This document shows positions 1,527 to 60,729 of a DNA stretch of 64,000 nt, piece by piece. The position numbers and the translations under genes were made by a program. The notes below the pieces were generated by a model. The model saw nothing but the letters and a program-made list of their open reading frames with translations, was not told the DNA's origin and did no database searches. This DNA is from a bacterium. Lineage in GTDB: Bacteria > Patescibacteriota > Minisyncoccia > Minisyncoccales > UBA10102. Where the stretch lies: positions 173,088-237,087 of the forward strand of contig JAUSJT010000004.1 in the NCBI GenBank assembly GCA_030647485.1, in the 5' to 3' direction. Each line of letters begins with the position of its first letter. Position 1 is the stretch's first letter.

Positions 1527-2768
1527 ATGCGCCAGTCACAGCTGTTCACAAAAACCCTCAAAGACGCTCCTCGAGACGAGGAAAGCACCAACGCTAAGCT
1601 CTTGATACGAGCTGGCTTTGTGCACAAGGAAATGGCGGGCGTATATACCTTTTTGCCTCTGGGGTTGAGGGTTTTAAAGAATATAGAGAATATTATCCGC
1701 GAGGAAATGAACAGGGCTGGAGGCCAGGAGCTGTTTATGCCTGCCTTGCATCCCAAGGAAAACTGGAAGCAGACAGGAAGATGGGATTCTTTAGATACTC
1801 TGTTCCGTTTCACTTCTTACTACACTAAGCAAGAGTATGCGCTAGGAGCCACTCATGAGGAAATTGTGGTTCCCCTTGCCAAAACACTCATTTCTTCGTA
1901 TCGGGATCTGCCCCAGTACGTGTACCAGATTCAAAACAAGTTCCGAGATGAAAAGCGCGCAAAGTCGGGAATCCTGCGCTCTCGGGAATTTCTCATGAAA
2001 GATCTGTATTCTTTCCATAAAGATGAGGCAGACTTGGACGCGTATTATGAAACAATGAAGGACTCCTACAAAAGGATTTTTGAAAGAGCAGGCATTGGAC
2101 ACGTTACCCACCTTACATTCGCTTCAGGGGGGACATTCTCAAAATATTCCCATGAGTTTCAAACGATAACCCAGGCAGGGGAAGATACTATATATCTGTG
2201 TGAGAAATGCGGAGTTGCGGTGAATGAGGAGATCATAAAAGACCAGCCTGTATGCCCTGAATGCCAGAACAAGAATCTCAAGCAGGAAAAAGCGGTAGAA
2301 GTGGGGAATATCTTTAAACTAGGCACCAAGTATTCAGAGCCCTTTCGTCTTACCTATAAAGACGAGAAGGGGAAGGAGAATCTTGTGGTTATGGGATGCT
2401 ATGGCATAGGATTAAACAGGCTTATGGGAGTTGTTGCGGAGGTATTCCATGACGAAAAAGGGATTCTGTGGCCAAAAGTTCTAGCTCCTGCTCTTGTGCA
2501 CCTTTTGTCCCTCGCAGGAGGGGAGCAGCAGGCTGACGAACTGTACAAAGATTTTCAAAATAAAGGTATTGAGGCGTTGTATGACGACCGGCGCGATTCC
2601 AGTCCAGGGGAGAAATTCACGGACGCAGATCTTATCGGTATTCCTTTGAGGATTGTGGTGAGCGCAAAGACGTATTCTGAAGGGAAGGTAGGGGTAAAGA
2701 AAAGGAATGAAAAGCAAGAACGCCTGATTGATGAGAAAGAGATCATGGAATGTATTCAATCTCTATGA
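1527..2768 (+). CDS. proS: prolyl-tRNA synthetase, short form without INS editing domain
   Basis: ProRS-type N-terminus (MRQSQLFTKTLKD..AKLLIRAGF) and class II core. Only 413 aa, with a small CxxC..CxxC insert (CEKCG..CPEC). Confidence 0.9.
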   Translation: MRQSQLFTKTLKDAPRDEESTNAKLLIRAGFVHKEMAGVYTFLPLGLRVLKNIENIIREEMNRAGGQELFMPALHPKENWKQTGRWDSLDTLFRFTSYYTKQEYALGATHEEIVVPLAKTLISSYRDLPQYVYQIQNKFRDEKRAKSGILRSREFLMKDLYSFHKDEADLDAYYETMKDSYKRIFERAGIGHVTHLTFASGGTFSKYSHEFQTITQAGEDTIYLCEKCGVAVNEEIIKDQPVCPECQNKNLKQEKAVEVGNIFKLGTKYSEPFRLTYKDEKGKENLVVMGCYGIGLNRLMGVVAEVFHDEKGILWPKVLAPALVHLLSLAGGEQQADELYKDFQNKGIEALYDDRRDSSPGEKFTDADLIGIPLRIVVSAKTYSEGKVGVKKRNEKQERLIDEKEIMECIQSL

Positions 2769-3826
2769 AAAACATATTCAGAAAAGCTCTCTCGTTCCTT
2801 GGCCAGGATATTGCAATTGATCTTGGTACCGCAAACTCGGAGGTGTATGTTCGCGGCAGGGGTATTGTTATCCAGGAACCTTCGGTGGTTGCGGTGAATC
2901 AAAGAACGGGGCAAATCCTAGCCATTGGAGCTGAAGCAAAAAAAATGGTTGGCCGCACGCCTGCCCATATTGTTGCCACAAGACCCTTGAGAAAAGGCGT
3001 TATTTCCGATTTTGAGGTTACCGAACAAATGCTTCGGTATTTTATTGAGAAAGCGACAAGAAGAAGGTTCTTGTTTAGTCCAGGGCCTCGCGTGATTGTT
3101 GGGATTCCCTTTGGAGTCACCGAGGTAGAAAAGAAAGCGGTGCGCGATGCTACGTTAAACGCAGGAGCCAGAGAGGTCTTTCTTATTGAAGAACCCATGG
3201 CAGCTGCCATAGGGGCCAGGCTACAGGTGCAAGAGCCAGGGGGCAACTTTATTGTGGATATAGGAGGAGGAACCGCAGAGGTCGCCATTATTTCTCTGGG
3301 CGGCATTGTATTGGCAAAATCTCTGCGTATTGCAGGGGATAAATTGAATGAGGATATCATCCAATTCGCGCAAGAAGAATTTAAGCTTTTGATAGGAGAG
3401 CGAACCGCAGAAGCCGTTAAGATTGCCATTGGGTCTGCGTATCCTCTGAAAGAAAAAATGGAAACTCCGCTTCGAGGAAGAAATTTGGTTACCGGGCTTC
3501 CCGAAGAGATTATGGTGTCTGATACGGATATTAGAAAGGCAATGGAGCGGTCGGTGCGCCAAATTGTCAACGAAATCAAGGCGACCGTAGAAGAAACTCC
3601 CCCAGAACTGTTGGCAGATATTATGGCAAAGGGTATTCATTTGTCAGGAGGAGGAGCATTGTTGAGAGGGCTTGACGTACTCATTGCGAAAGAAACAAAA
3701 ATCCCAACTATTGCCGTAGAGGATCCCCTCACCGCAGTGGTGCGGGGAGCGGGGCTCGTTTTAGAAAACCTTGATGAATTAGAAGAGGTGCTTGTGGAAA
3801 CAGAGGACTTAGAACCACCGCATTAG
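2765..3826 (+). CDS. mreB: rod-shape protein MreB
   Basis: Actin-fold motifs DLGTANS, VDIGGGTAEVA, HLSGGGALLRGLD. ATG at 2765 overlaps the proS stop (ATGA). Confidence 0.9.
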   Translation: MKNIFRKALSFLGQDIAIDLGTANSEVYVRGRGIVIQEPSVVAVNQRTGQILAIGAEAKKMVGRTPAHIVATRPLRKGVISDFEVTEQMLRYFIEKATRRRFLFSPGPRVIVGIPFGVTEVEKKAVRDATLNAGAREVFLIEEPMAAAIGARLQVQEPGGNFIVDIGGGTAEVAIISLGGIVLAKSLRIAGDKLNEDIIQFAQEEFKLLIGERTAEAVKIAIGSAYPLKEKMETPLRGRNLVTGLPEEIMVSDTDIRKAMERSVRQIVNEIKATVEETPPELLADIMAKGIHLSGGGALLRGLDVLIAKETKIPTIAVEDPLTAVVRGAGLVLENLDELEEVLVETEDLEPPH

Positions 3827-3909
3827 TTTTTACCCCGACCCCCGACTTAAGACACCTTCGGTTTCTTAGGTCGCTAGCGCTCCCATTTTTTCCACCACGG
3901 GCTAAAAAC
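3826..3909 (-). repeat. SR element copy A (structured dispersed repeat)
   Basis: Reverse complement carries CCGTGGTGGAAAAAA .. TAAGAAACCGAAGGTGTCTTAAG .. GGGGGTCGGGG. Flanks GTTTTTA.CCC / GGG.TAAAAAC pair with each other. Confidence 0.7.
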
Positions 3910-3927
3910 ATTTTTCCAAGAAAAATT

Positions 3928-4224
3928 ATGATTACAAAAGAAGAAGTACAACATATCGCGCAATTGGCGCGCATTCGAATAAATGAAAAGGAGGTAGAAA
4001 AACTCCAGCAAGATATTTCCGGAATCCTTGATTATTTTGCCGTGCTCAAAGATGCAGATACGTCAAAAGTTGAAGCGACAACGCATTCAATTATTCTTGA
4101 GAACATATCAAGAGAAGACGTTGCCCATCCGGGAAGCCCTGCGCTTTTACAGAAGCTCGTTGATATGTTCCCGGCTGTACGAGATGGGCTGCTAAGAGTA
4201 AAAGCTATTTTCTCTTCCAGATGA
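3928..4224 (+). CDS. gatC: Asp/Glu-tRNA amidotransferase subunit C
   Basis: 98 aa GatC-like protein (ITKEEVQHIAQLARI). Its stop overlaps the gatA start. Confidence 0.85.
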   Translation: MITKEEVQHIAQLARIRINEKEVEKLQQDISGILDYFAVLKDADTSKVEATTHSIILENISREDVAHPGSPALLQKLVDMFPAVRDGLLRVKAIFSSR

Positions 4225-11593: not shown

Positions 11594-11614
11594 AAATTTA
11601 TGTATAATAAATTT

Positions 11615-11682
11615 AGGTTTCCCCCGTGTAGGAAATTATTCAAAACCGAGGGTTTTGAAAAGAGGGGGGTCGGGGGAAACCT
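11615..11682 (+). repeat. SR element copy B
   Basis: AGGTTTCCCCCG-TGTAGGAAA..CAAAACC-GAG-GGTTTTG..GGGGGGTCGGGGGAAACCT. The outer stem is a perfect 12 bp. Confidence 0.7.
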
Positions 11683-11693
11683 TGTGAACGTGT

Positions 11694-26307: not shown

Positions 26308-26740
26308 GCATTTGGCAAGATCCATTGCAATGCAGTCTTTGTATGAGTGGGACTTTGCTGGAAAGAAAGAGGACTTAAAAGAACTCGTAGAGCGCAATAT
26401 CCAGGAGTTTGGCCCTGGGCTAGAAGACGTTAATAAGGACTTTATCAGAACGCTGGCCTCTGGAGTAAAAGAACATATGCCAGACTTAAACCAGATTATT
26501 GAAAAGGCGGCCCCAGAATGGCCTCTAGAGCAGATTACCATTGTGGACCGCAATGTGCTGCGCTTGGGACTCTTTGAACTCTTGTACGGAAACAAAGACG
26601 AAGTTCCCCCAAAGGTAGCCATTAATGAAGCCATTGAACTTGCAAAGAACTTTTCTGGGGAGTCTTCGGGAAAGTTTGTGAATGGGGTTCTGGGAACCGT
26701 GTACCGAGAATTAGAAAGTGGTTCGACAAGCTCACCATGA
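26297..26740 (+). CDS. nusB: transcription antitermination factor NusB
   Basis: [19 protein letters not shown]-terminus and [12 protein letters not shown] motif. Confidence 0.85.
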
Positions 26741-27438
26741 GCACCATGAAAGATTTTTCTCCTCTAGAGCTAAGCCTGAACGTTTCTTTCAAGGACAAGA
26801 ATTTCCTTGTGCAGGCGTTCATTCACCGCTCGTACTTGAATGAAAACCCGAATTCCGGCCTTCAGCATAATGAACGATTGGAATTCTTGGGAGATGCGGT
26901 GTTAGAGCTCGTAGTGACAGAGAACCTGTACCAGAATTATCCTGACAAACCAGAGGGGGAACTCACTACTTGGCGGGCAGCGCTCGTGAATGCAAAAATA
27001 CTGTCTGAAATTGCAAGATCCTTAAAGTTCAACGACTTTCTACTATTGTCTCGGGGAGAAGGCCAAGAAGAGGGGAAAGCGCGAGATTACATTCTTGCTA
27101 ACACCATGGAATCTTTTATTGGAGCCTTGTACCTTGACCAGGGGCTGAAAGTATGCGAAAAGTTTATCACAGAGCATATTCTTTCAAGACTCCCCGCCAT
27201 ACTTGCAGACAAACTCTTTGAAGACGCAAAATCCAGATTCCAGGAACTAGCCCAAGAAAAGGTGGGGATAACCCCTACGTACCAGGTTATTGAAGAGTGG
27301 GGTCCTGACCACGAAAAGAACTTTAAGGTGGGGGTGGTCATTGGAAGTGAAGTAATTGCACAAGGAAGAGGTACATCCAAGCAGGAAGCAGAACAAGACG
27401 CAGCTTCCCAGGCATTAAAAAAGAAGGGTTGGAACTGA
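26737..27438 (+). CDS. rnc: ribonuclease III
   Basis: [16 protein letters not shown] signature and C-terminal dsRBD. Confidence 0.95.
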
Positions 27439-30804: not shown

Positions 30805-31545
30805 ATGATTACATTTGACGTTATCACTATATTTCCAGAGTTCGTAAAGGCATTCTCTCAAGAATCTTTATTGAAAAAAGCTCAAGAGAAAAAACTCTTG
30901 AAGATAAACGTACACAACTTGAGAGATTGGGCAACAGACCCGCACAAGAAGGTTGATGACAAACCCTTTGGCGGGGGATTAGGCATGGTATTTAAAATTG
31001 AACCTTTGTACGAAGCAGTTCAAGATATAAGGAAATCCTTCCGCTCGCAAGCGTCAGGATCTCGACCAAAGGTCTCGAAAACTAAAGTCATCTTGTTCAC
31101 TCCTCGTGGAAAGAAATTCACCCAGCAAAAAGCAGAAGAACTTGTAAAGAACAAACGCCTTATCTTTATATGCGGAAGGTATGAGGGGATAGACGAAAGA
31201 GTGGCAAAACATATCGCAGATGAGGAACTGTCTATTGGGGACTATGTCTTAATGGGAGGGGAAATCCCTGCCATGGCCGTTATTGAGACAATAGCCCGTC
31301 TTATCCCGGGGGTCGTAGGCAAGCCCACCTTTCTTAAAGAACGCCGCCTAGGCGTCAAATCGGGCCAAAAACAAGGGTTTTTAGAGTATCCCCAGTATAC
31401 TCGCCCCGAGATTTTCTCCCCCCGCCTCGCCGGCGGGCGGGCTAAAAAGGGAGTAGTATGGAGGGTGCCTAAGGTTCTACTTTCTGGAGATCATAAAAAG
31501 ATTGAAGAATGGAAGCGAGAACAAGGCAGGGTTATTTGCAAATAG
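30805..31545 (+). CDS. trmD: tRNA (guanine37-N1)-methyltransferase
   Basis: MITFDVITIFPEF, CGRYEGIDERV and GGEIPAMAVIE motifs. Internal basic insert. Confidence 0.95.
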   Translation: MITFDVITIFPEFVKAFSQESLLKKAQEKKLLKINVHNLRDWATDPHKKVDDKPFGGGLGMVFKIEPLYEAVQDIRKSFRSQASGSRPKVSKTKVILFTPRGKKFTQQKAEELVKNKRLIFICGRYEGIDERVAKHIADEELSIGDYVLMGGEIPAMAVIETIARLIPGVVGKPTFLKERRLGVKSGQKQGFLEYPQYTRPEIFSPRLAGGRAKKGVVWRVPKVLLSGDHKKIEEWKREQGRVICK

Positions 31546-31574
31546 GGGATTTTATGCTATCGTAGTGATGAATT

Positions 31575-31657
31575 GGGTCGGTACTCAAGCGGTCAACGAG
31601 GTGACGCTGTAAACGTCATGACTTCGGTCTTCGGGGGTTCGAATCCCTCCCGGCCCA
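31575..31657 (+). tRNA. tRNA-Tyr (GTA)
   Basis: Type II tRNA with a long variable arm. Anticodon arm TGACG-CTGTAAA-CGTCA. Confidence 0.9.
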
Positions 31658-31683
31658 CAATTTTTCCTATAAGGAAAAATTGC

Positions 31684-31763
31684 AAATTATTCCGTGGTGG
31701 AAAAATAGGAACGAAGTGACGTAAGAAACCGAAGGTGTCTTAAGCTGGGGGTCGGGGTAATTT
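31684..31763 (+). repeat. SR element copy C
   Basis: AAATTATTCCG..GGTGGAAAAATAGG..AGAAACC-GAA-GGTGTCT..GGGGGTCGGGGTAATTT. Ends 3 nt before tRNA-Thr. Confidence 0.75.
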
Positions 31764-31766
31764 GGT

Positions 31767-31837
31767 GCCGAGGTAGCTCAATGGTAGAGCACGTCATTGG
31801 TAATGACGCGACAAGAGTTCAATTCTCTTTCTCGGCT
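31767..31837 (+). tRNA. tRNA-Thr (GGT)
   Basis: Acceptor GCCGAGG/TCTCGGC, anticodon arm CGTCA-TTGGTAA-TGACG. Confidence 0.85.
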
Positions 31838-31890
31838 CCGACAAACAGGTCGTATTCGTATATTCGTATAAATTCGTAATTCGTAGAATC

Positions 31891-32067
31891 ATGGCAACAA
31901 AAAGAAAGGCATACACCAAGATGATGTGCGCGGAGTGCAAGAAAGTGAACTATTTTGCGCATAAGTCAAAAATGGTAAAAATGAAAGAAGGAGAGCAGAA
32001 GCTTGAACTAAAGAAGTTCTGCAGACATTGCAAGAAGCATACTCCCCACAAAGAAACAAAGAAATAG
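31891..32067 (+). CDS. rpmG: ribosomal protein L33
   Basis: 58 aa, below the ORF-track cutoff: MATKRKAYTKMMCAECKKVNYF..FCRHCKKHTPHKETKK. Confidence 0.85.
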   Translation: MATKRKAYTKMMCAECKKVNYFAHKSKMVKMKEGEQKLELKKFCRHCKKHTPHKETKK

Positions 32068-32081
32068 GGGAAATTTTCTTT

Positions 32082-32177
32082 GAAAATTTGCGGTTCTCCC
32101 CGTGTAGGAAAACAGGTCGCCAAAGGCGACCGTTAGAAACCGTGGGTTTCTAAAAGAGGGGGGTCGGGGTGATTTTC
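32082..32177 (+). repeat. SR element copy D
   Basis: ..CTCCCCG-TGTAGGAAAA, GGTCGCC-AAA-GGCGACC, AGAAACC-GTG-GGTTTCT, GGGGGGTCGGGGTGATTTTC. Ends 1 nt before tRNA-Trp. Confidence 0.75.
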
Positions 32178-32178
32178 T

Positions 32179-32252
32179 AGGGGCGTAGTGAAGTGGTATC
32201 ACGAATCTCTCCAAAAGATTCGGCGGAGGTTCGATTCCTCCCGCCCCTGCCA
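32179..32252 (+). tRNA. tRNA-Trp (CCA), 3' CCA encoded
   Basis: Acceptor AGGGGCG/CGCCCCT, anticodon arm AATCT-CTCCAAA-AGATT. Confidence 0.9.
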
Positions 32253-32385
32253 CGTTCAGTTCACTTCGCCACAATTATGTAAACTAATTGTGGTTCGTTC
32301 ATGAACGTGGCGAGCCACAATTATGTGACTAATTGGTGACGAGCCACGTGAATAGAAGTAGAACATGAACGGTGGCCTGCCACAT

Positions 32386-32643
32386 ATGTATTACTTTTAT
32401 ATTCTTCGGAGTAAAAGGAATAGAAAACTCTATCTTGGTCAAACTGCAGATCTAAAAGCACGGATAAAATCTCATAATGCGGGGGAGAATAAAGCGACTA
32501 AACCTAACATCCCATACGAATTAATTTTTTACTCTGCTTTTAATAATGAGGGGGATGCCATAAATTCTGAGCAATATTTCAAAACAACGGCTGGTTGGAA
32601 ACGACTTAGTAAAATGCTAGAGAATACGCTAAAGGTAAAATAA
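32386..32643 (+). CDS. GIY-YIG nuclease-domain protein
   Basis: YYFYILRS..KLYLGQTADLKARIKSHN, about 85 aa standalone URI-type domain. Confidence 0.75.
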   Translation: MYYFYILRSKRNRKLYLGQTADLKARIKSHNAGENKATKPNIPYELIFYSAFNNEGDAINSEQYFKTTAGWKRLSKMLENTLKVK

Positions 32644-32675
32644 AGAATCGCCAAGACGGCGGGTTTTTGGTATCC

Positions 32676-32703
32676 TTGATTTTTTGCATGATTTATGTAT
32701 AAT
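32676..32703 (+). promoter_or_regulatory. sigma70-type promoter
   Basis: TTGATT, 16 nt spacer, TATAAT. AGGAGG lies before the ATG at 32738. Confidence 0.5.
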
Positions 32704-32737
32704 GCACTTAGCTAAGACAACGAAGGAGGAATAGAAC

Positions 32738-33004
32738 ATGTCTTTACAACTTACTTCCAGGGAGCTAGCCGAGCTTGTAGAGCGTTTGCGATTGTTCAAT
32801 AGCATACCACCAGAACAAAGAATTGACGTCTCTGGCGTTGTTCGTCAGCATTGCACAGAAAGCACCCAGCTCTTCGCTACTGTGTACGGTGATGAACCTA
32901 CGGAAAACGAAACAATACAGCTCTGTGAGCATATCAAGCAATGCATTCCCTGTGGGGCGTTCCTGCGCTACATGTGGCGTGTAACCAGTCGTGCTGGCTA
33001 TTAA
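32738..33004 (+). CDS. small Cys/His protein with H-x3-C-x2-C motif (hypothetical)
   Basis: CEHIKQCIPC resembles the zinc-binding anti-sigma (ZAS) motif. Strong promoter and SD. Terminator at 33038-33075. Confidence 0.5.
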   Translation: MSLQLTSRELAELVERLRLFNSIPPEQRIDVSGVVRQHCTESTQLFATVYGDEPTENETIQLCEHIKQCIPCGAFLRYMWRVTSRAGY

Positions 33005-33220: not shown

Positions 33221-33541
33221 CTACATCTTGTTTGCTCCAGGAAGCGGAAGTCCCAACTTCTTGAGGTTTCGCACCACAGAAGCAAGCTGAGATACCACTA
33301 CGAGAAGAAAGCCAACCGGAACCAAGAATGCCAAGGAAGGAAGTCCTTGCGCAACAAGCTGCAACACCGCATACCCGAACACATACGCTAGTACGGATCC
33401 GTGCATGAACGCCGCAACCTTTCCGAATCGAAACTCCTTTCTAACCACTGCTCCCAATATACCCAAGATGACGTCAACCGCGATTAAGGCAACAATGATC
33501 TGCGTTTGAGTGCTTGAAAAAAGATCAACAAAATCTGGCAT
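33221..33541 (-). CDS. holin-like small membrane protein (hypothetical)
   Basis: 106 aa with 3 TM helices. IVALIAVDVILGILGAVVRKEF resembles phage holin/TcdE-type N-termini. Confidence 0.45.
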   Translation of the reverse strand: MPDFVDLFSSTQTQIIVALIAVDVILGILGAVVRKEFRFGKVAAFMHGSVLAYVFGYAVLQLVAQGLPSLAFLVPVGFLLVVVSQLASVVRNLKKLGLPLPGANKM

Positions 33542-41075: not shown

Positions 41076-43548
41076 CATTCAACAAAGCAGAATATGGGAA
41101 ACCATTTTCTTTGATCAAGTATTCTGCATAAAGAAAGTGAGGTTTTTACGCAAAGCGTTCCAGTGGATTCTTTGGACCCTATGCGTTGTGTTTGTTGTAG
41201 GATTTGTTGCAAAAACACTTTCTCAAGAAACCCTCTCCTTGGCGCTCGGGGGCATGTTTCTTTCTCTTGCCTTGATTGGAACCTTCTTTCTTGTTGAGTC
41301 CTTTGGAGAATATCTAAAGACAGGGCGCCCAGAAAAAGAAACAAAGAACCTTGCAGACGCCCTTTCTTTTGAAAGCGCCAAGGCGCTCAAGAATGCTTCA
41401 TCCTCATCACAGACGCTTTTGCGACTTGTGCGAGAGAACCCGGAACTTCACTTTGTGTTCAACAGGCTCTTGTTAAATTGGCAGAGCATGCAGAAACAAT
41501 TGAAAATCCTGAGTAGCAACGAAGGACTCAAGGGGCAACAAGGAACGGAAGATATCTTAAGATTGGTTGAAAAAGCATTTACAGCAGCTAAAGAGAATAA
41601 TCACAGAATTATAGAGAAGGGAGACCTTCTGATTGCGCTCGCAGAGGAAGAGCCGGTCTTTAAGGAAGCGCTCCGGGAACATGATATAAGCCCAAAAGAT
41701 ATTGGGAAAACCGTGTGGTGGTTAAGCATACTTGAAGAACGCATAAAAGAGCAAAAACAATGGTGGCAAGAGAAAAACTTAAGAAAAAGAGGAACTCTGG
41801 CACGCCAATGGACCGCGGGATTCACTCCAACTCTTGACCAGTTTTCTTTTGATCTTACTGAATCGTTAAAAACGCAGGGATCCCCACGGCTTGTCGGTCA
41901 CAGAAAAGAAGTGGAATCCTTAGAACGGGCATTGTCCAGGATAAAGGCAAACAATGCGCTTTTAGTGGGAGAGCCCGGGTCTGGCAGAAAAAGCATAGTG
42001 TATGAAATTGCCTTGAGAAGCATGCTCGGGGAAAGCGCACCCCATATAAATTACAAAAGAGTTTTGGAGCTTGACGTACTCGGCCTTTTAGCTCGCGTAC
42101 AAAGCTCGGCAGAACGAGAACAATATCTTGACCAGATATTCCAAGAAGTGGTGGCAGCAGGCAACGTTATTGTGTTCATTGACGACTTTCACAACTATGT
42201 AAGCTCGAGAAATCAGGGGAGGCCTGGATCCTTGGATATTTCAGCAAGCATTGCAAAATATCTCGCCACCCCTTATTTCCCCGTTATCGCCTGTACTACG
42301 TTCTCTGGACTCCATCAGGATATTGAACAGAATTCAGGCATACTTGGACTGCTAGAAAAAGTGGAAGTATCAGAGATATCTCCCGACGAGACATTTCAAG
42401 TACTCTTTCAGCTTGTGTTCTCCTTGGAGAGAAAATACCGCAAGTTCATCCCATACCAGGCCATACGAGACATTGTGAAGCTGTCTGGAAAATATATTCA
42501 GGCAGTTCCATTCCCGCAAAAGGCAGTGGATCTTTTGCAAGAAGCAGTGGTGTTTCTTAGCCAAACAAAAGACAAGGTATTGCTTGGCTCGCATATTGCG
42601 TCTCTGGTTTCTCAAAGAACGCAGATCCCAGTAGGGGACTTGGAATCAAAAGAGAAGGAGGTGCTCTTAAACTTAGAAGATCTCATCCACAAAAGAATTA
42701 TAGACCAGGAAGAAGCGGTAAAAGAAGTTTCTTCTGCGTTGCGCCGCGCAAGAACAGAAATAGGGTCAAGGAAAGGGCCCATGGGAACGTTCCTGTTCTT
42801 GGGCCCCACCGGAGTAGGGAAGACAGAGACTGCAAAAGCGTTGGCTGCCATTTACTTTGGGTCTGAAGAACGCATGGTGCGTCTTGATATGTCAGAATAC
42901 CAGAACGTCCAGGACACCGAGCGATTACTAGGTTCTGCAACCCAGGAAGGGATATTCTGCACCCAGGTCAGAGAAAATCCTTTTTCTCTTATTCTCCTAG
43001 ACGAATTGGAAAAAGCCCACCCCAACATTCTCAACCTGTTCTTGCAGGTACTAGACGAGGGGCACATCACCGACGGCATTGGAAGAAAGGTAAGCTTCCA
43101 GCACACCATCATTATCGCAACAAGCAATGCAGGTAGCCAGCTCATCTTGCAGGCATTGAAAGACCAGAAAGATTTTGCAATATTGAAAGAAGAGATCATT
43201 GACTATCTATTCAAAGAAGGAGTATACAGGCCAGAATTTATCAACCGGTTTGACGCAATGGTACTGTTCAAGCCCCTTGCCAGAGAACATCTCTTGAAAA
43301 TTGTGGACCTCATGCTTTCAAAACTTAAAAAGAATCTTGCAGAACGCGGCATTGAATTTTCTGCCACCCAATCCTTAAAAGAAAAAGTTGCAGACCTGGG
43401 GTACGATCCCAAGTTTGGAGCGCGGAACTTAAAACGCATTATCCAAGACAAGGTAGAAAATGTATTCGCAGTTGCTCTCCTGGAAGATAAACTCCAGAGA
43501 GGGGACAAGGTCGAGATGCAAGAAGACTTTACCATTACAAAACTATGA
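41053..43548 (+). CDS. membrane-anchored Clp/Hsp100-family AAA+ ATPase
   Basis: Two N-terminal TM helices and Clp_N-like repeats. NBD1 has atypical motifs (GEPGSGRKS; FIDDFH). NBD2 is canonical (GPTGVGKTETAKALA; LLDELEKAH). Confidence 0.85.
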   Translation: MASEFFFNIQQSRIWETIFFDQVFCIKKVRFLRKAFQWILWTLCVVFVVGFVAKTLSQETLSLALGGMFLSLALIGTFFLVESFGEYLKTGRPEKETKNLADALSFESAKALKNASSSSQTLLRLVRENPELHFVFNRLLLNWQSMQKQLKILSSNEGLKGQQGTEDILRLVEKAFTAAKENNHRIIEKGDLLIALAEEEPVFKEALREHDISPKDIGKTVWWLSILEERIKEQKQWWQEKNLRKRGTLARQWTAGFTPTLDQFSFDLTESLKTQGSPRLVGHRKEVESLERALSRIKANNALLVGEPGSGRKSIVYEIALRSMLGESAPHINYKRVLELDVLGLLARVQSSAEREQYLDQIFQEVVAAGNVIVFIDDFHNYVSSRNQGRPGSLDISASIAKYLATPYFPVIACTTFSGLHQDIEQNSGILGLLEKVEVSEISPDETFQVLFQLVFSLERKYRKFIPYQAIRDIVKLSGKYIQAVPFPQKAVDLLQEAVVFLSQTKDKVLLGSHIASLVSQRTQIPVGDLESKEKEVLLNLEDLIHKRIIDQEEAVKEVSSALRRARTEIGSRKGPMGTFLFLGPTGVGKTETAKALAAIYFGSEERMVRLDMSEYQNVQDTERLLGSATQEGIFCTQVRENPFSLILLDELEKAHPNILNLFLQVLDEGHITDGIGRKVSFQHTIIIATSNAGSQLILQALKDQKDFAILKEEIIDYLFKEGVYRPEFINRFDAMVLFKPLAREHLLKIVDLMLSKLKKNLAERGIEFSATQSLKEKVADLGYDPKFGARNLKRIIQDKVENVFAVALLEDKLQRGDKVEMQEDFTITKL

Positions 43549-43940
43549 AAAAGCCAGAAGACTATTTCAACAACGGAGAAGTATATGTCTGGAAAGAAAC
43601 CTTTGCGGTTGCAAAATCAAAAAAACCCTTGCCAGACGCGGTGGTCACCATTCAAGACAAGAATGAGATTACGGTGGTGATAGACCAAGAAAAACTTGAG
43701 GCCCACAAAGACGATCTCGTAGAAACAGACAGGGATTGGAAAATCATTACCTTTGACATGCTCTTGCCCTTAGACATGGTGGGATGGATAGCCAAGGTGT
43801 CAGACATCCTTGCGGACGAAGGAATAAGCATACTAATCCTTTCTGCGTATTCTACTGATCACGTACTAGTGAAAATGTCCGATCTTGAAAAGGCAACTAA
43901 CAAGCTGAAATCCATGGGTTGTAGGATAAGCGAGAAATAA
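43545..43940 (+). CDS. ACT-domain-like small protein
   Basis: C-terminal MVGWIAKVSDILADEGISILILSAYSTDHVLV resembles an ACT fold. Confidence 0.5.
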   Translation: MKKPEDYFNNGEVYVWKETFAVAKSKKPLPDAVVTIQDKNEITVVIDQEKLEAHKDDLVETDRDWKIITFDMLLPLDMVGWIAKVSDILADEGISILILSAYSTDHVLVKMSDLEKATNKLKSMGCRISEK

Positions 43941-43994
43941 GACATAAGAAGGAGGGAAAGAGATGGCCAGCATAGAGCTGGCTCTTTTCTTTTC

Positions 43995-44084
43995 AAATCA
44001 CCCAGTGGTGGAAAAATAGGAGGTTGCCTCAGGCGACTGACGTAAGAAACCGAAGGTGTCTTAAGCTGGGGGTCGGGGTGATTT
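43995..44084 (+). repeat. SR element copy E
   Basis: AAATCACCC-AGTGGTGGAAAAATAGG, GTTGCC-TCA-GGCGAC, AGAAACC-GAA-GGTGTCT, GGGGGTCGGGGTGATTT. Confidence 0.75.
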
Positions 44085-44090
44085 GCATCT

Positions 44091-44240
44091 GGGGATAATA
44101 TGGGGAGAAACAGGGGATTTAAGGCAGGATTCCAAGGGGTAGAAATGTGGTTGACCAGGGTGCATGAGTGGGATATAGTGGAAATGTAGTGGAGACCTGT
44201 GGATAAAAGTGGGGATAACTCCCCATAACTGTGGATAACT
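44091..44240 (+). promoter_or_regulatory. phased GGGG/GTGG repeat array (MraZ operator-like) overlapping the mraZ promoter
   Basis: G-blocks start at 44091, 44102, 44113, 44136, 44147, 44158, 44168, 44178, 44189, 44199, 44209 and 44231 (period 10-11 bp). TTGACC-17-TATAGT promoter at 44151-44179. Confidence 0.6.
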
Positions 44241-44293
44241 CATTCGAGTCTGAAGACTCTTCAGAGTCTGAACGACTTAGCCAGGCTAAGGAT

Positions 44294-44725
44294 ATGTTCA
44301 TCGGAGAATACACATACTCAATAGACGATAAAAAGCGTCTTGCCATTCCTCCTAAGTTCAGGGAGATTTTAGGCAAAAAAGCTGTTATCACCAAAGGACT
44401 GGATACCTGTCTTTTTTTGTATCCCATAAAAGAATGGGAAGTGGAAGCTCAAAAGCTTGGGAATCTTCCGCCCACACAGGCAGCTGCCAGAAGCTACGCA
44501 CGAATTACCCTTGCGTCCGCGCGGGATGTTGATTTTGACTCATTAGGAAGAATTGTGCTTCCCGAATATCTTAAGGACTGGGCTGGATTTGGGAAAAGGG
44601 TTGTGGTGACTGGTGTCTACAAAAAAATTGAGATATGGGACGAGAAAAAGTGGACAGAATACAAAGAGAAGATTGAACCGAATATGGACAGCATCGCAGA
44701 AAGCTTGAAAGAATACGGCATTTAA
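44294..44725 (+). CDS. mraZ: transcriptional regulator MraZ
   Basis: MFIGEY start and two SpoVT/AbrB-like repeats (DDKKRLAIPPKFR; DSLGRIVLPEYL). Confidence 0.9.
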   Translation: MFIGEYTYSIDDKKRLAIPPKFREILGKKAVITKGLDTCLFLYPIKEWEVEAQKLGNLPPTQAAARSYARITLASARDVDFDSLGRIVLPEYLKDWAGFGKRVVVTGVYKKIEIWDEKKWTEYKEKIEPNMDSIAESLKEYGI

Positions 44726-48360: not shown

Positions 48361-48636
48361 TTATATTCTCTTGAGTACGCTCTTGTAAGCAACTGAGCGA
48401 TGCTGTATTAAAAGTATTTTTACAATAGAACTCTCAATACGAAAGACAACGCGATAATCTCCAACCCTCAGCTTGCGATACCCCTTCAGGGAATGACGAA
48501 GAGGCCTGCCAAATACCTCGGGCTGATGGGTGAGCTTTTCTTCAATTGCTCTCTTAATACTGTTCTGCCAATCTTTTGATATCTTGGGCATGTCTTCACG
48601 AAGAACATCTTCGTGGTAACGTATCTCAAAATTCAT
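48361..48636 (-). CDS. RelE/ParE-family toxin
   Basis: 91 aa. KLRVGDYRVVFRIE..ILLIQHRS is typical of RelE/ParE. Overlaps the upstream antitoxin gene by 4 nt. Confidence 0.8.
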   Translation of the reverse strand: MNFEIRYHEDVLREDMPKISKDWQNSIKRAIEEKLTHQPEVFGRPLRHSLKGYRKLRVGDYRVVFRIESSIVKILLIQHRSVAYKSVLKRI

Positions 48637-49016: not shown

Positions 49017-49788
49017 GTGTTAGACCTCGGAGGTCTAACACTTCCGAGGTCTAACATCTTGGCTAAACCTATTCAAGAAAAAGATGGCTGAGATGAATCT
49101 CGTTTTCTTTAAGCTTTGCTGTGCTTGTATCCACAAATTCCTGGTAGAACTTTTGCGTTGTAAATTGATTCAGCACAATGTTTGGGTTAAGAAGTTCTTT
49201 CCAGCGATTTTCTCTGGCGAAATCCTGATAACTTGACCAGGGATAGGAAATCTCTTTATCCGTCCAGGCTTCCAATGATCTCGGGTTACGATGGATATAC
49301 GCTGAAAGATAAAGAAGTTGCTCGTTTTTCTCAACAGGTACCGCGCGAAAACTTCCCCGAAAAACATGTCCGCCCCTCTGGTATTTTGCATTAAAATATT
49401 TTGCGTATCCACCTTCAAGTCGTTGAAGATAGCTTGAGATACCACCCTTTTCTTTTTCTTGAATCAGCAGATGAAAATGATTGGGCATTATCGCAAAAGC
49501 ATTCAGTTCCACCTGCTGTTTGGAACGCATCTGCACTATTGCTTCTTGGGCAATGTTAAACTTTGTGTGTTCAATAAAATACGAGACGGAACGTCCGATG
49601 TTGAAAAACGGAGTGGGGAATTGATAAAAGAGCAGGAAGAAAATCATACGCGCATAGTCACGTTCGTCGAAAAAGATGGTTTTGCCATCGTTGCTTTTAT
49701 TGCAGAGATGATAATAGAACCCTGGCGCAAATTGAATTTTCCTCCTCATGCTTTTAGTGTATCATGCTAGACCTCCGAGGTCTAACAT
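49017..49788 (-). mobile_element. IS200/RAYT-like unit bounded by related palindromes
   Basis: GTGTTAGACCTC-G-GAGGTCTAACAC at 49017-49041 (plus a half-copy at 49042-49057). ATGCTAGACCTC-C-GAGGTCTAACAT at 49764-49788. Confidence 0.6.
49069..49749 (-). CDS. Y1 (HUH) transposase, IS200-like / REP-associated tyrosine transposase family
   Basis: HUH motif MPNHFHLLI and catalytic-Tyr region YLSAYIHRNP. 226 aa. Confidence 0.8.
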   Translation of the reverse strand: MRRKIQFAPGFYYHLCNKSNDGKTIFFDERDYARMIFFLLFYQFPTPFFNIGRSVSYFIEHTKFNIAQEAIVQMRSKQQVELNAFAIMPNHFHLLIQEKEKGGISSYLQRLEGGYAKYFNAKYQRGGHVFRGSFRAVPVEKNEQLLYLSAYIHRNPRSLEAWTDKEISYPWSSYQDFARENRWKELLNPNIVLNQFTTQKFYQEFVDTSTAKLKENEIHLSHLFLE

Positions 49789-49862
49789 GCTGCCGGGACT
49801 CTATGAGGCCGCTACGAATACACGGTATAGCGTAAACTCACCATTCTTTCTATAATAGAAGA

Positions 49863-55357: not shown

Positions 55358-56731
55358 CTAAAGAGAGAATTCTTCTCCTGGAGCTTCTTGGTATTGCATA
55401 TCTTTTGCCAAGTCGGTAAAGCTTACCGTACGCTCGTTAAAGTAGAGCTTTACCGAACCTACCGGGCCATTGCGATGCTTGGCAATGATAATTTCTGTGA
55501 TGCCCTGGTTTGTGGGATCTGGTTTGTATTTATCCTCGCGGTAGATAAAGAGCACCACGTCCGCATCTTGTTCCAGAGATCCAGACTCACGAAGATCGGA
55601 AAGGCGTGGACGCTGGGGCGTTCTTTGCTCTACTGCCCTTGAGAGTTGAGACAAAGCAAGGACAGGAACGTTCAACTCCCTTGCCAATCCCTTAAGAGAT
55701 CGGGAAATTTCCGTAACCTGCTGCACAATAGGAACCTGGCTGTTTCTAGGATCAATAAGCTGGAGATAGTCAATGATTAATAAGCCCAAACCATGGTTTG
55801 CCTGGAGGCGCCTTGCTTGAGCCCTCATTTGCAGAACATTCTGCATAGGGCTGTCCTCAATAAATATGGGGGCTTCAGAAAGAGTTCCCATGGCCTGTTG
55901 TATATGTGAGAAATCGTTTTCGTCTCCGTCGGAAGAAAGCTTTCCCGTTCTCAAGCGCCACAGATCTACTCCTCCTTGAGAGGCGATAAGGCGGTCTATA
56001 ACCTGGTCCTTGGACATTTCCAAACTAAACACGCCCACAGGGATTTTGTGATTCACCGCAACGCGACGCGCAATATCCATGGCCAAGGCAGACTTTCCCA
56101 AAGAAGGCCTGGCTGCAAGAATAATTAAATCAGACTTCTGAAATCCAGAAAGAATGTTATCCAAGTCCCCAAATCCACTAGGGACTCCTCTCGTTCCTCC
56201 TTCGTGTTTTGAAAGCTTATCAATCCTCTCAAACGCCTCTTCCAAGTCATCTTTCACTTGCACAAAGTTACGAGACATGGAACGCTGGGCAATAGAAAAG
56301 ATGCTTGACTCTGCCTTGTCTAAAAGAACATCAGGGTCTTCGGTCTCGTCGTACCCCATAGATCCTATCTCGTAAGAGACGGAGATAAGATCTCGCAGAA
56401 TTCTCTTTTTCTGCACTATTTTCGCATACGTTAACACATGAGAGGCAGTAGGCACGGTATTGATGAGTTGCGTGAGGTACGTATTTCCCCCAATCCCTTC
56501 TAACTTACCATTCTCTTTTAATCTTCCTGCCGCAGACAACACATCAATAGGGTCTCCCTTCTCAAAGAGTTCCCTCATTGCCTCGTAGATTATCTGATGC
56601 GTTGGCTTGTAGAAATCTCTGGGTTCCAAAAAATCAGCAACCTTAATCATTGCGTCTTTATCCAACATCAAAGACCCCAGAAGAGACATTTCTGCTTCAA
56701 TAGATTGAGGAGGAAGTTTAGAATCTGGCAT
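55358..56731 (-). CDS. dnaB: replicative DNA helicase DnaB
   Basis: PPQSIEAEMSLLGS N-terminus and Walker A ARPSLGKSALAMD. Confidence 0.95.
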   Translation of the reverse strand: MPDSKLPPQSIEAEMSLLGSLMLDKDAMIKVADFLEPRDFYKPTHQIIYEAMRELFEKGDPIDVLSAAGRLKENGKLEGIGGNTYLTQLINTVPTASHVLTYAKIVQKKRILRDLISVSYEIGSMGYDETEDPDVLLDKAESSIFSIAQRSMSRNFVQVKDDLEEAFERIDKLSKHEGGTRGVPSGFGDLDNILSGFQKSDLIILAARPSLGKSALAMDIARRVAVNHKIPVGVFSLEMSKDQVIDRLIASQGGVDLWRLRTGKLSSDGDENDFSHIQQAMGTLSEAPIFIEDSPMQNVLQMRAQARRLQANHGLGLLIIDYLQLIDPRNSQVPIVQQVTEISRSLKGLARELNVPVLALSQLSRAVEQRTPQRPRLSDLRESGSLEQDADVVLFIYREDKYKPDPTNQGITEIIIAKHRNGPVGSVKLYFNERTVSFTDLAKDMQYQEAPGEEFSL

Positions 56732-59405: not shown

Positions 59406-59462
59406 AGGGCTTCTTTTTTGGAAAAACTCGCTCTTTCATGCTACTATGCACATGAAACTTAC

Positions 59463-59498
59463 ATGGCTAATCTTGTACTATATAGAAAATATCAACCA
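59463..59498 (+). pseudogene. displaced duplicate of the dnaX 5' end
   Basis: Encodes MANLVLYRKYQP versus the genuine MPNLVLYRKYRP located 157 nt downstream. Confidence 0.65.
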
Positions 59499-59500
59499 GT

Positions 59501-59593
59501 CGCTTCGCTCCCAAGACACCTTCGGTTTCTTGCGCTCACTGCGTTCGCTGTTTTTCCACCACGGGAGGATACCCAATCCTCCCGACCCCTCCT
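59501..59593 (-). repeat. SR element copy F (rearranged / possibly circularly permuted)
   Basis: Reverse complement reads GGAGGGGTCGGGAGGAT-TGGGT-ATCCTCCCGTGGTGGAAAAAC..AAGAAACCGAAGGTGTCTT. The GGTCGGG block precedes CCGTGG and is joined to it by a hairpin. Confidence 0.6.
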
Positions 59594-59619
59594 GTGCGGT
59601 CTATATTTTCTAAACTCAT

Positions 59620-60729
59620 ATGCCTAATCTTGTACTATACAGAAAATATAGACCTAAAACCTTTGGGGAAATCACGGGCCAAGAGCATGTGGTGAGAACC
59701 TTAAAGAACGCTGTGTTGCACGGCATGATCTCCCACGCCTATTTGTTTTCCGGCCCTAGGGGATGCGGAAAAACAACCATGGCACGGCTTCTTGCTAAAG
59801 CAGTAAACTGTGAAAAGCCAAAGCAAGGAGAACCCTGCAACGAATGCTCTGCGTGCAAAGAGATAAACCTGGGCAGCGCCATGGACTTAATAGAAATAGA
59901 CGCCGCCTCCAATAGGGGAATTGACGAAATCCGAGACCTTAAAGAAGGAGTGAGATTTTCTCCTACAAAACTCAAGTACAAGGTGTTTGTCATTGACGAA
60001 GCGCATCAGCTCACAAAGGAAGCTGCAAACGCGCTCTTAAAAACTTTGGAAGAACCCCCTTCCCACGCAATCTTCATCTTAGCTACCACAGAGATACAGC
60101 GCATGATCCCAACCCTAGCTTCTCGCTGCCAGAGGTTTGACTTTCGCAAGTTGAGAGTTCCAGAAATGGTTATGCGGCTTGAAGATATGGCAAAAAAAGA
60201 GGGGATTGAGGTAGAAAAAGACGCGCTTGAGCTTCTAGCCCATCATGCTGGGGGCTCTTTGAGAGACGCAGAAGGGCTTTTAGATAAGGTTTTGACTTTC
60301 CACTTGGGCGCAGGTTCGAAAGAGAAGATACGGACGGAGGTTGTGAGAGAATTGCTGGGGATAGTGGATGTTCAGATTATAGGATCTTTTGCAGACCTTC
60401 TCTTGGCAAAGAACCCCGGGAAGGCGATAGAGTTTTTGAATAAGAACTTGGAAGATGGCATGGATCCTCAAGAGTTTGCCAAGACCCTGATAGAATACTT
60501 GAGAACCCTTCTTATCTTAAAGATAAACCCGGCACTGGAAGACATGTTTGCGGGACCATTAACAAAAGAACAGCAAGAGAAAATGAAGCTGCAATCCTCC
60601 ACTATAAACGAGGAGTTGCTGTCTCGCACCATCAAAAACTTCATGGATGCGGAGCAGAAAATGAAATATTCCAGTATTATTCAGCTTCCTTTGGAGCTTG
60701 CGATTATTGATTCTTGCGGGGTCGTCTAG
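59620..60729 (+). CDS. dnaX: DNA polymerase III gamma/tau subunit (short form)
   Basis: Walker A GPRGCGKTT, Zn module CNECSACKE, VIDEAHQLT and SRC motif. Last 15 nt overlap tRNA-Gln. Confidence 0.9.
   Translation: MPNLVLYRKYRPKTFGEITGQEHVVRTLKNAVLHGMISHAYLFSGPRGCGKTTMARLLAKAVNCEKPKQGEPCNECSACKEINLGSAMDLIEIDAASNRGIDEIRDLKEGVRFSPTKLKYKVFVIDEAHQLTKEAANALLKTLEEPPSHAIFILATTEIQRMIPTLASRCQRFDFRKLRVPEMVMRLEDMAKKEGIEVEKDALELLAHHAGGSLRDAEGLLDKVLTFHLGAGSKEKIRTEVVRELLGIVDVQIIGSFADLLLAKNPGKAIEFLNKNLEDGMDPQEFAKTLIEYLRTLLILKINPALEDMFAGPLTKEQQEKMKLQSSTINEELLSRTIKNFMDAEQKMKYSSIIQLPLELAIIDSCGVV

Follow-up and report, generated by a model that had tools for sequence, protein, structure and literature searches.

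SR, a dispersed structured repeat of Patescibacteria that behaves as a mobile element

The window analysed here is a stretch of 64,000 nucleotides (nt) from a bacterium of the Patescibacteriota (contig JAUSJT010000004.1 of assembly GCA_030647485.1, positions 173,088 to 237,087 of the forward strand). Pfam scans of 60 open reading frames (ORFs) of the window returned housekeeping genes and two genes of mobile type, a GIY-YIG ORF and a Y1 transposase. Dispersed among these genes are six copies, labelled A to F, of a short structured repeat, SR. A first-pass annotation had reported the six copies from the letters alone, and all of them are present: the 9-mer GGGGTCGGG has six exact occurrences across the window, one in each copy. 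A covariance model (R1), built from 94 family members and run over the entire window with filters off, recovered these six only, with five full matches of 65-79 bits (E 6e-13 to 2e-16) and a partial match of 36 bits for copy F. The best noise score, 18.5 bits, fell on the reverse strand of copy B, and nothing else rose above noise. The copies are as follows, P1 and P2 being helices of the fold described below.

3826..3909, minus strand: copy A, standard topology (R1 3824-3910(-), 75 bits, E 2.4e-15)
11615..11691, plus strand: copy B, minimal form without the P2 hairpin (R1 11614-11684(+), 79 bits)
31684..31763, plus strand: copy C, standard topology (R1 31682-31766(+), 75 bits)
32091..32177, plus strand: copy D, chimeric (R1 32090-32178(+), 65 bits, with non-canonical marks in P1)
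43995..44084, plus strand: copy E, standard topology with the P2 hairpin (R1 43993-44087(+), 75 bits)
59455..59650, minus strand: copy F, whole unit of a permuted subfamily (R1 partial match 59486-59574(-), 36 bits)

Copy A is antisense to both of its neighbours, an mreB-like gene (2750-3826) and a gatC-like gene (3928-4224), and copy B, with a fold z-score of -3.7 and a 9-nt 3' tail TGTGAACGT at 11683-11691, occupies the secE|nusG spacer. Copy E lies between an ACT-domain gene (43545-43940) and mraZ (44231-44725), both assigned by Pfam. Copy C begins 25 nt past tRNA-Tyr and stops 3 nt short of the +1 position of tRNA-Thr, and copy D ends 1 nt before tRNA-Trp; ARAGORN and Rfam place the two tRNA starts at 31767 and 32179, so that the gaps of 3 and 1 nt noted earlier were read correctly. 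The start of copy D, on the other hand, had been set at 32082 and belongs at about 32091, since 32070-32089 is a separate AT-rich hairpin. The P1 helix of copy D is mostly unpaired: its 5' strand CGGTTCTCCCC resembles that of L062 (labels of the form L### denote loci outside the window), as does its core, and its 3' strand GGGGTGATTT resembles that of copy E. Copy D is therefore a chimera of two different subfamilies.

A strand-specific fold in two topologies

The standard form of SR, 70-105 nt long, is a three-way junction formed by one strand. Its closing helix, P1, has an invariant inner part (CCCCG/CGGGG) and a subfamily-specific outer part; P2 is an optional hairpin, and P3 is a conserved hairpin of 7-9 base pairs (bp), AAACC-GNR-GGUKU. 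Two purine-rich strands, G-U-R-N-N-GGAAA (G(U)GNNGGAAA) and AAG..GGGGGU (AAG..GGGGGUCGGGG), make up the junction, and in many copies P1 is followed by a semi-conserved 3' tail of 9 nt, UGUGAUCGU. Reading the six sites of the window gave the same order of parts that the first-pass annotation had proposed, namely flank, CCCCG, UG(G)U(A)GGAAA, optional hairpin, conserved hairpin, AAG..GGGGGUCGGGG and complementary flank.

Covariation was assessed in an alignment of 94 distinct standard copies (A1) against 500 shuffles and against slid partners. In P1 and the conserved hairpin 94.4% of the cells were paired, compared with 75.4% in the shuffles, and the covariation score was 0.49 compared with 0.14 in the shuffles (0 of 500 reached 0.49) and 0.06-0.13 with slid partners. 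Double changes affect 11 of the 21 pairs, and seven pairs of P1 and four of the hairpin show 4-6 pair types. RNAalifold agrees with the covariation of both helices, and mutual information ranks the P1 and P3 pairs highest, with a hint of a contact between junction column 18 and loop columns 72/73. The pairing and covariation bear out the earlier proposal that selection acts on the secondary structure of one strand and not on fixed inverted repeats. The accompanying statement that the flanks pair in every copy does not hold for copy D, the closing stem of which is largely unpaired.

Which strand folds is indicated by the loops. Among 216 element segments, GCGAAGC occurs 73 times in the sense strand and its complement GCTTCGC 0 times, and GCGNAGC occurs 92 times as against 2; the sense strand also folds better than the antisense strand in 73 of the 94 copies. 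G.U pairs, which had been taken to set the orientation, do not serve as such a marker at the level of the family, where they stand at 32 to 22 A.C in P1 and P3 and at 13 to 11 in P2; as a test for RNA this excess is weak, and it is the loop motifs that set the strand.

An outer helix, P0, prolongs P1 in about a quarter to a third of the copies. Its 3' strand is host sequence, the first 10-16 nt of which recur in inverted form immediately 5' of SR as the 5' strand; P0 is stacked on P1, with the tail as a bulge on the 3' side. Folds extended in this way have z-scores of -2.5 to -5.6 and combined P0+P1 helices of 20-25 bp, and exact inverted target copies of 10-15 nt are present.

In the permuted topology P1 is capped by a short loop and the element opens between P3 and the G tract, where P0 enters. 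The capped P1 hairpin is found in 121 of 121 permuted copies, with a mean of 7.9 bp and 45 distinct stem sequences, and P3 covaries. Among the matches listed, the permuted form is as common as the standard form and has the same target signatures. Copy F is a member, sharing a UGGGU cap and a CACAGGA-GGGGUC lead with L023, L039, L125 and L158; its architecture recurs at L023 2913-2978, L039 1216-1279, L125, L158 and other loci. It had been described as rearranged, and it does differ from the standard form, but it represents a conserved, circularly permuted subfamily and no random rearrangement. The unit, flanked by a direct target duplication of about 39 nt (59650-59612 and 59493-59455), reads as follows on the minus strand.

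59650-59612, minus strand: target copy T1
59611-59598, minus strand: inverted target copy (P0 5' strand)
59589-59581, minus strand: GGGGTCGGG
59583-59563, minus strand: capped P1 hairpin
59562-59551, minus strand: GTGGTGGAAAAA
59550-59532, minus strand: P2-like segment
59531-59513, minus strand: conserved hairpin
59512-59499, minus strand: GGGAGCGAAGCGAC mini-hairpin
59498-59484, minus strand: P0 3' strand
59493-59455, minus strand: target copy T2

Multimeric forms also occur. L014 and L044 hold 1.2- to 1.5-mers, and L018 (2960-3299) holds a tandem array, in each unit of which SR is combined with a tRNA 3' part (from the variable loop onwards), a spacer of 45 nt and an inverted target copy of 10 nt; this array suggests unequal crossing-over or a multimeric insertion.

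Many copies have, in addition, an AT-rich hairpin of 6-8 bp, which precedes P1 by 1-4 nt and frequently has a few T after it. Within the window such hairpins stand at 3910-3927 (copy A), 11596-11616 (B), 31660-31682 (C) and 32070-32089 (D), and their sequence is different at each locus, within single genomes too. Reading the hairpin as T1 plus the inverted copy of a short duplication fits L072 but fails for most copies. It may be a favoured target (the foot of a terminator), a by-product of insertion or a component of SR.

Range of the family and its insertion sites

A pattern scan of a collection of species-representative genomes matched at least 109 stretches, almost all in metagenome-assembled genomes (MAGs) of Patescibacteria that carry the labels Parcubacteria, Paceibacterota, Nealsonbacteria, Patescibacteria or 'Saccharibacteria'; in some of them at least 9, or at least 16, copies were counted. 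A metagenome scan for the permuted form returned at least 120 stretches, and nearly all of its named matches were Patescibacteria. Many matches of the family came from the Hainich and Rifle wells. The pattern used for the genomes gave 0 matches in 2.9 million viral contigs, and carriage by phages was rejected on this ground. SR has no coding capacity. Rfam 15 at gathering thresholds called only tRNAs in the window and in seven genome loci, and SR drew no match at E<=10 in 31560-32300 or at E<=5 in twelve permuted loci. Hammerhead, twister, twister-sister, pistol, hatchet, HDV-like and hairpin ribozymes were included in this test, as were group I/II intron domains, Drum, tmRNA and Y RNA-like families, and none matched SR; on inspection, the hammerhead (CUGAUGA/GAAA/UH), twister, pistol and HDV-like folds could not be mapped consistently onto the SR core. 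Nothing resembling SR was found in the searchable literature, work on tRNA introns of Patescibacteria included. The earlier view that SR belongs to no named RNA family is therefore borne out, and SR is a previously uncatalogued and very widespread element of the Patescibacteria. With at least 109 and at least 120 stretches in the two scans it ranks among the most abundant uncatalogued structured motifs of the group, the genomes of which, although streamlined to about 1 Mb, bear tens of copies (about 6 per 64 kb in the window).

At tRNA genes it is mainly the 3' end of SR that makes contact. A tRNA lies within 5 nt of the 3' end of the element in 18 of 98 standard copies, and within 5 nt of its 5' end in 1 only. 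Ten of the 18 contacts are with the +1 position of a tRNA on the same strand and eight with the discriminator end of a tRNA on the opposite strand; tRNA 5' and 3' ends are contacted about equally, which fits a rule of insertion and not a processing signal. Relative to the nearest long ORFs or tRNAs, 33 copies have the same orientation as both neighbours, 23 are opposite to both and 21 are mixed. Given this mixed orientation and the abutment of tRNA ends in both orientations, the role in transcript processing or insulation that had been suggested for SR is not upheld; SR behaves as a mobile element and not as a dedicated tRNA-processing signal.

The second signature of insertion is duplication of the target. 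Direct repeats of at least 15 nt (and up to 89 nt) flank 20 of 94 standard and 42 of 121 permuted copies (21-35%), compared with 28 of 2988 random positions (0.9%). Where present, the target duplications are 11-89 nt long; they are missing from many copies. What is duplicated is the part of the target between the insertion point and the end of the gene, or a position past it, so that the upstream gene is left intact and a displaced copy of its end follows the element. Among the targets are the 3' parts of tRNAs, taken from within the T-loop or from just before it and repeated directly at both junctions in L004, L005, L006, L009, L018, L055, L066 and L084; 48 of the 121 permuted copies lie 33-80 nt behind a tRNA on the same strand. 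Other targets are the first 17 nt of an antisense tRNA, from the D-loop (L020, L103, L031), the last 28 or so codons of gyrB (L080, with a 76-nt exact repeat, and L104) and the last 23 or so codons of clpP (L086). At the tRNA-Tyr|tRNA-Thr site of L077 the SR copy is followed by a duplicated tRNA-Tyr 3' end, unlike copy C. The displaced target copies of L004, L009 and L112 include unprocessed trailer sequence. Where the tRNA insertion is older, the displaced T-loop shows one of two recurring alterations, a change to GUGAGAU, paired to antisense AUCGAAC through tandem G.A/A.G pairs, or the insertion of a UAGCGAAGCG mini-hairpin. No common target motif was seen at the junctions.

Two further observations concern tRNA-like targets. 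In L156 (52-554, minus strand) a permuted SR lies immediately downstream of a tmRNA gene (Rfam, 116 bits), so that the tRNA-like end of tmRNA is used as a target too. A tRNA on the opposite strand, or one containing an intron, was considered for copies with an 'antisense T-arm' and rejected, as ARAGORN and Rfam made no call there and the acceptor strands do not pair.

Orthologous sites without SR are found in relatives. The secE|nusG spacer that holds copy B is empty in L104 (NusG 76% identical) and in L053, and in L021 (MreB 83% identical) mreB and gatC overlap (ATGA) without the insert that is present as copy A. Copies resembling B are not orthologues of the secE|nusG site, since nusG is present in 3 loci only and B-like copies occur at many. 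The first-pass annotation had held that presence or absence between strains, with short target-site duplications and no transcript conservation, would mark a plain miniature inverted-repeat transposable element (MITE). Presence/absence and target duplications were indeed found; because the duplications are long and variable, however, SR is no plain MITE.

The gyrB insertions of L080 (3889-4170) and L104 (5420-5700) are a special case. At both loci the functional and the displaced gyrB end (28 codons) are in frame and encode an identical peptide, all four ends keeping the frame FDILMGSEVGPRKRFIQTHAKTVKNLD(I/V)*, and the two ends of L104 are 16 substitutions apart, all of them synonymous. Between the two loci, the element together with the displaced gyrB end is 88% identical and the gene just upstream 63%; the displaced copies are 87.6% alike and the functional copies 75.3%. 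The case suggests that filled alleles were transferred, that gene conversion took place or that repeated excision brought the displaced end under selection, and the identities between L080 and L104 make horizontal transfer possible. A relation to the variable and template repeats of diversity-generating retroelements was rejected, as the differences between the duplicated ends are not adenine-specific.

The cumulative GC skew of the window rises from position 1 to about 50 kb and then falls. The turn near 48-52 kb is a possible replication-related inflection, with dnaB at 55358-56731. In 5 of the 6 window copies the folded strand is the locally G-rich strand, a proportion that is not significant.

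Candidate mobilising genes

The only transposase-type gene in the window is the Y1 (IS200-like) transposase of 226 amino acids at 49069-49749(-). Its best NCBIfam match is the REP-associated tyrosine transposase (RAYT; REP, repetitive extragenic palindromic sequence), at E 7e-12 and below the cutoff. The gene is flanked (49017-49058 and 49764-49791) by a palindrome of its own, TGTTAGACCTC-CG-AGGTCTAACA (TGTTAGACCTC..GAGGTCTAACA), which occurs nowhere else in the window. This family is common in Patescibacteria (692 matches). Among 229 SR-centred loci, RAYT homologues were present in 3, at 1.3-2.3 kb from SR and never adjacent to it. RAYT was set aside as the mobiliser of SR, neither adjacency nor co-occurrence being seen in the sampled loci.

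The GIY-YIG ORF (92 amino acids, 32365-32643(+), Pfam E 8.5e-15) begins 112 nt after tRNA-Trp. GIY-YIG is the sole protein family enriched within 400 nt of SR; in most of the loci that have one (L045, L049, L060, L069, L077, L078, L153, L169) the homologue lies 43-320 nt from SR, nearly always in a tRNA cluster. GIY-YIG was nonetheless set aside as the partner of SR, since both occupy tRNA clusters and the link may be indirect. In L060 the GIY-YIG ORF stands between a duplicated tRNA-Gln 5' fragment (17-nt insert) and the complete tRNA-Gln, an arrangement that makes the ORF itself resemble a mobile insertion with duplication of its target. Neither near any SR copy nor among the window ORFs scanned with Pfam was a reverse transcriptase found, no integrase was seen near the copies and no recombinase family is enriched there, and the SR loci yielded no parent insertion sequence (IS).

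Between tRNA-Trp and the GIY-YIG ORF, 32253-32345 forms nested and repeated hairpins, with GCCACAATTATGT(A/G)A(A)CTAATTG(T)GG present twice and CACGTTCA...TGAACGTG enclosing the whole; these are unrelated to SR. An ORF of the ParE toxin family (48361-48636(-)) and a small holin-like membrane ORF (33221-33541(-)) also lie amid the housekeeping genes.

Mechanism, rival explanations and comparison with known systems

The conserved feature of SR is the fold of one strand and not terminal inverted repeats. On balance we lean towards the explanation that SR is a selfish mobile element, not autonomous, that enters its targets by a target-primed reaction of the copy-in type. The folded single strand would be the substrate of a trans-acting machinery, and the 3'-OH of the target would prime the copying of SR from its 3' end. 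At the 5' end of SR the polymerase, held by P1 beside the point of entry, would switch to the adjacent target strand for 10-16 nt and so write the inverted copy; a template switch of this kind would reproduce exactly the order of inverted copy, element, tail and target. Rejoining further downstream may yield the variable duplication, multimers or circles may yield the permuted and tandem forms, and filled alleles would probably bring SR from one lineage to another through natural transformation followed by homologous recombination. The folded form is more likely single-stranded DNA (ssDNA) than RNA, because GCGAAGC and GNA mini-hairpins are abundant, G.U barely exceeds A.C, insertion takes place in both orientations and copies sit right behind terminators. 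d(GCGAAGC) and GNA triloops are classic ultra-stable mini-hairpins of DNA, the RNA versions of which are unremarkable. These arguments tilt the balance towards ssDNA; they do not settle it.

Several points weigh against this explanation. It names no mobilising enzyme: the RAYT-like gene of the window is flanked by a palindrome unlike SR, with the nearest SR copies 5 and 10 kb off, and 72 kb around three RAYT homologues in other Patescibacteria contained no SR. The ssDNA (HUH) transposons known to us make no target duplications, and we know of no mechanism that yields the exact signature of SR. Standard copies show no replication-strand bias in a local GC-skew test (35:29), and in the permuted copies the bias that is seen (39:9) is confounded with the orientation of the tRNAs. 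Across the phylum some 25 positions, unpaired or in the junction, are invariant, which looks more like a catalytic or protein-binding RNA than like a simple transposon end, and so do the possible junction-loop tertiary pair and the tandem G.A pairs in P0. The search patterns themselves force part of the invariance of GGAAA, AAACCG, GGT and GGGGTCGGG; the few model-only matches show that GAACC, GGGGGCGGG and a 4-nt loop are tolerated.

It is conceivable, if somewhat unlikely, that the core of about 70 nt is a new small nucleic-acid machine, catalytic or enzyme-recruiting and working in two permutations, which would home to the 3' ends of genes and, in tRNA genes, to the termini and the exposed loops, write a 10-16-nt antisense copy of the target as a guide arm and save the host gene by the duplication; taken as a whole, this would amount to a new retroelement based on a self-cleaving or ligating ribozyme or a new bacterial form of ssDNA copy-in transposition. 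An RNA element in the narrower sense is unlikely. Its core would be a small self-cleaving or self-ligating ribozyme, or the fold recognised by the reverse transcriptase of a retroelement resembling a retrozyme or a short interspersed nuclear element (SINE), cut at its own boundary (for example before tRNA +1 or the displaced T-loop remnant) and inserted by target-primed reverse transcription with a fold-back template switch, multimeric or circular intermediates giving the permuted and tandem forms. A minimal size of about 70 nt, invariant unpaired junction purines and two circular permutations, traits typical of the twister and hammerhead classes, would fit, as would the possible pair between junction column 18 and loop columns 72/73, the tandem sheared G.A pairs in P0 (GUGAGAU opposite AUCGAAC), the better fold of the sense strand in 73 of 94 copies, duplications that often run to a terminator and hence to transcript ends, and an SR 3' end that matches RNA-defined tRNA boundaries. 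Yet no Rfam ribozyme matches even at E<=5-10, reverse transcriptases are missing near the copies and from the window, G.U is not clearly in excess of A.C (32:22), the GCGAAGC/GNA triloops are hallmarks of DNA hairpins, and many copies sit right behind strong terminators with scant room for a promoter. The unprocessed trailer in the displaced targets of L004, L009 and L112 argues, moreover, that mature RNAs were not the template.

That SR is instead a cis-acting RNA of benefit to the host, a processing, insulator, terminator or stabiliser module of tRNA and ribosomal-protein operons released or cut at its P0+P1 helix by RNase P/Z or RNase III, is improbable. Copies C and D and 8 further copies do abut tRNA +1 on the same strand, helices of 20-25 bp would offer a site to the RNase III encoded at 26737-27438 of the window, the core is strongly conserved across a very diverse phylum and the displaced gyrB ends stay in frame. 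Against this, 23 copies are opposite to both neighbours (33 same, 21 mixed), convergent tRNA 3' ends are used equally, relatives lack SR at orthologous sites, chimeric or decayed copies exist (copy D, for example), and tens of copies per genome of about 1 Mb occupy unrelated loci. In 31400-32800 no terminator-like U tract follows P1, and the only intrinsic terminator called there was the P2 hairpin of copy D on the opposite strand, with none at the P1 of copies C and D. A miniature integrative module, finally, is highly improbable. A small DNA circle carrying a target 3' end and SR would recombine at that segment in Campbell fashion, by RecA or by a host site-specific recombinase or topoisomerase, SR being the recombination site and the P0 arms mimicking the target duplex. 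Phage 21 and e14 replace the 3' end of icd, and the attP arms of CTX phage mimic a target duplex. Direct repeats of variable length that always reach the gene end agree with such a module, as do the 16 synonymous substitutions between the gyrB ends of L104, which are expected of two functional genes, the T-loop and D-loop positions, reportedly classical integrase sites (Williams 2002), and an inverted target copy about 90 nt from the target, like attP1/attP2 of CTX. But there is no integrase in or near the units of 150-250 nt, the targets are many where a site-specific recombinase would use one, and copies that abut tRNA ends without duplication are left unexplained; the inverted arm, furthermore, matches the local target and thus must be made anew at each site.

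Whatever its mechanism, SR accounts for partial tRNA genes, for duplicated ends of genes and for odd hairpins between genes, all of which confuse annotators of these MAGs, and it identifies the T-loops, D-loops and exact ends of tRNAs as hot spots of insertion. It also provides a clean system for asking how a structured element enters essential genes without killing them. If the core were catalytic, it would represent a new ribozyme class with natural permutations; if it were an ssDNA substrate, a new transposition chemistry with a target-derived inverted arm.

By analogy, SR appears to work most like REP/REPIN or MITE-type repeats, and its effect on target genes resembles that of integrative elements that replace 3' ends. 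Like the repeats of REP/REPIN-RAYT systems, SR is short, non-coding, extragenic, present in high copy number and in both orientations, and probably recognised as a folded single strand, so that its stems covary; a GTAG-like motif (GUGUAGG/GUGGUGG in SR) stands at the foot of the helix and a RAYT-like gene is present in the window. A REP, however, is a simple palindrome of 20-40 nt and makes no target duplications, whereas SR is a three-way junction of 70-105 nt with about 25 invariant unpaired positions and does make them, and the RAYT of a REP system is flanked by its dispersed repeat, which the Y1 gene here is not. With MITEs (the Correia elements of Neisseria, pneumococcal RUP and BOX, the palindromic elements of Rickettsia) SR shares its small size, dispersal and non-autonomous, non-coding, multi-copy nature, presence/absence between relatives, locations in operons and beside or inside genes, and transcripts that would form long hairpins. 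MITEs have terminal inverted repeats, a parent IS and a fixed duplication of 2-10 bp; SR has no family-wide terminal repeat beyond 5 bp (CCCCG/CGGGG, the outer 6-7 bp of P1 having 4-6 pair types per position), no parent IS, variable duplications of 11-89 nt, an added inverted target copy and circularly permuted members. The IS200/IS605-derived palindrome-associated transposable elements (PATE) have distinct subterminal hairpins at the left and right ends, insert 3' of a fixed tetra- or pentanucleotide and make no duplication, unlike the single closed fold, absence of a motif and duplications of SR.

Tyrosine-integrase islands, and phage 21 and e14 in icd, likewise target tRNA genes, at the 3' part that starts from the T-loop, or the 3' ends of protein genes, keep an intact gene with the displaced copy at the far junction, where differences may be synonymous only, and leave a direct repeat of the tRNA 3' end, as SR does; SR differs in its unit of about 150-250 nt without an encoded integrase, its dozens of targets, its inverted arm and its structured core. 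Permuted ribozymes (twister P1/P3/P5, hammerhead I/II/III) and retrozymes or SINEs resemble SR in size, junction purines, optional hairpin, two permuted topologies, high copy number and association with mobile DNA, but SR matches no Rfam ribozyme model, has a DNA-like loop repertoire (GCGAAGC) and lacks a reverse transcriptase partner, and its catalysis is putative. Folded ssDNA substrates, namely integron attC, the attP(+) strand of CTX phage and the T-shaped inverted terminal repeats of parvoviruses, share with SR a strand-specific fold of three-way (T or Y) hairpin shape, variable stems with few fixed bases and inverted arms separated by about 90 nt; on inspection SR has no R''/R' boxes and no Xer sites, and cassette arrays and associated IntI, Xer or Rep genes are likewise foreign to it. 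As SR thus departs from the defining traits of MITEs, REPs and islands and matches no ribozyme covariance model, we place it among the dispersed structured mobile repeats.

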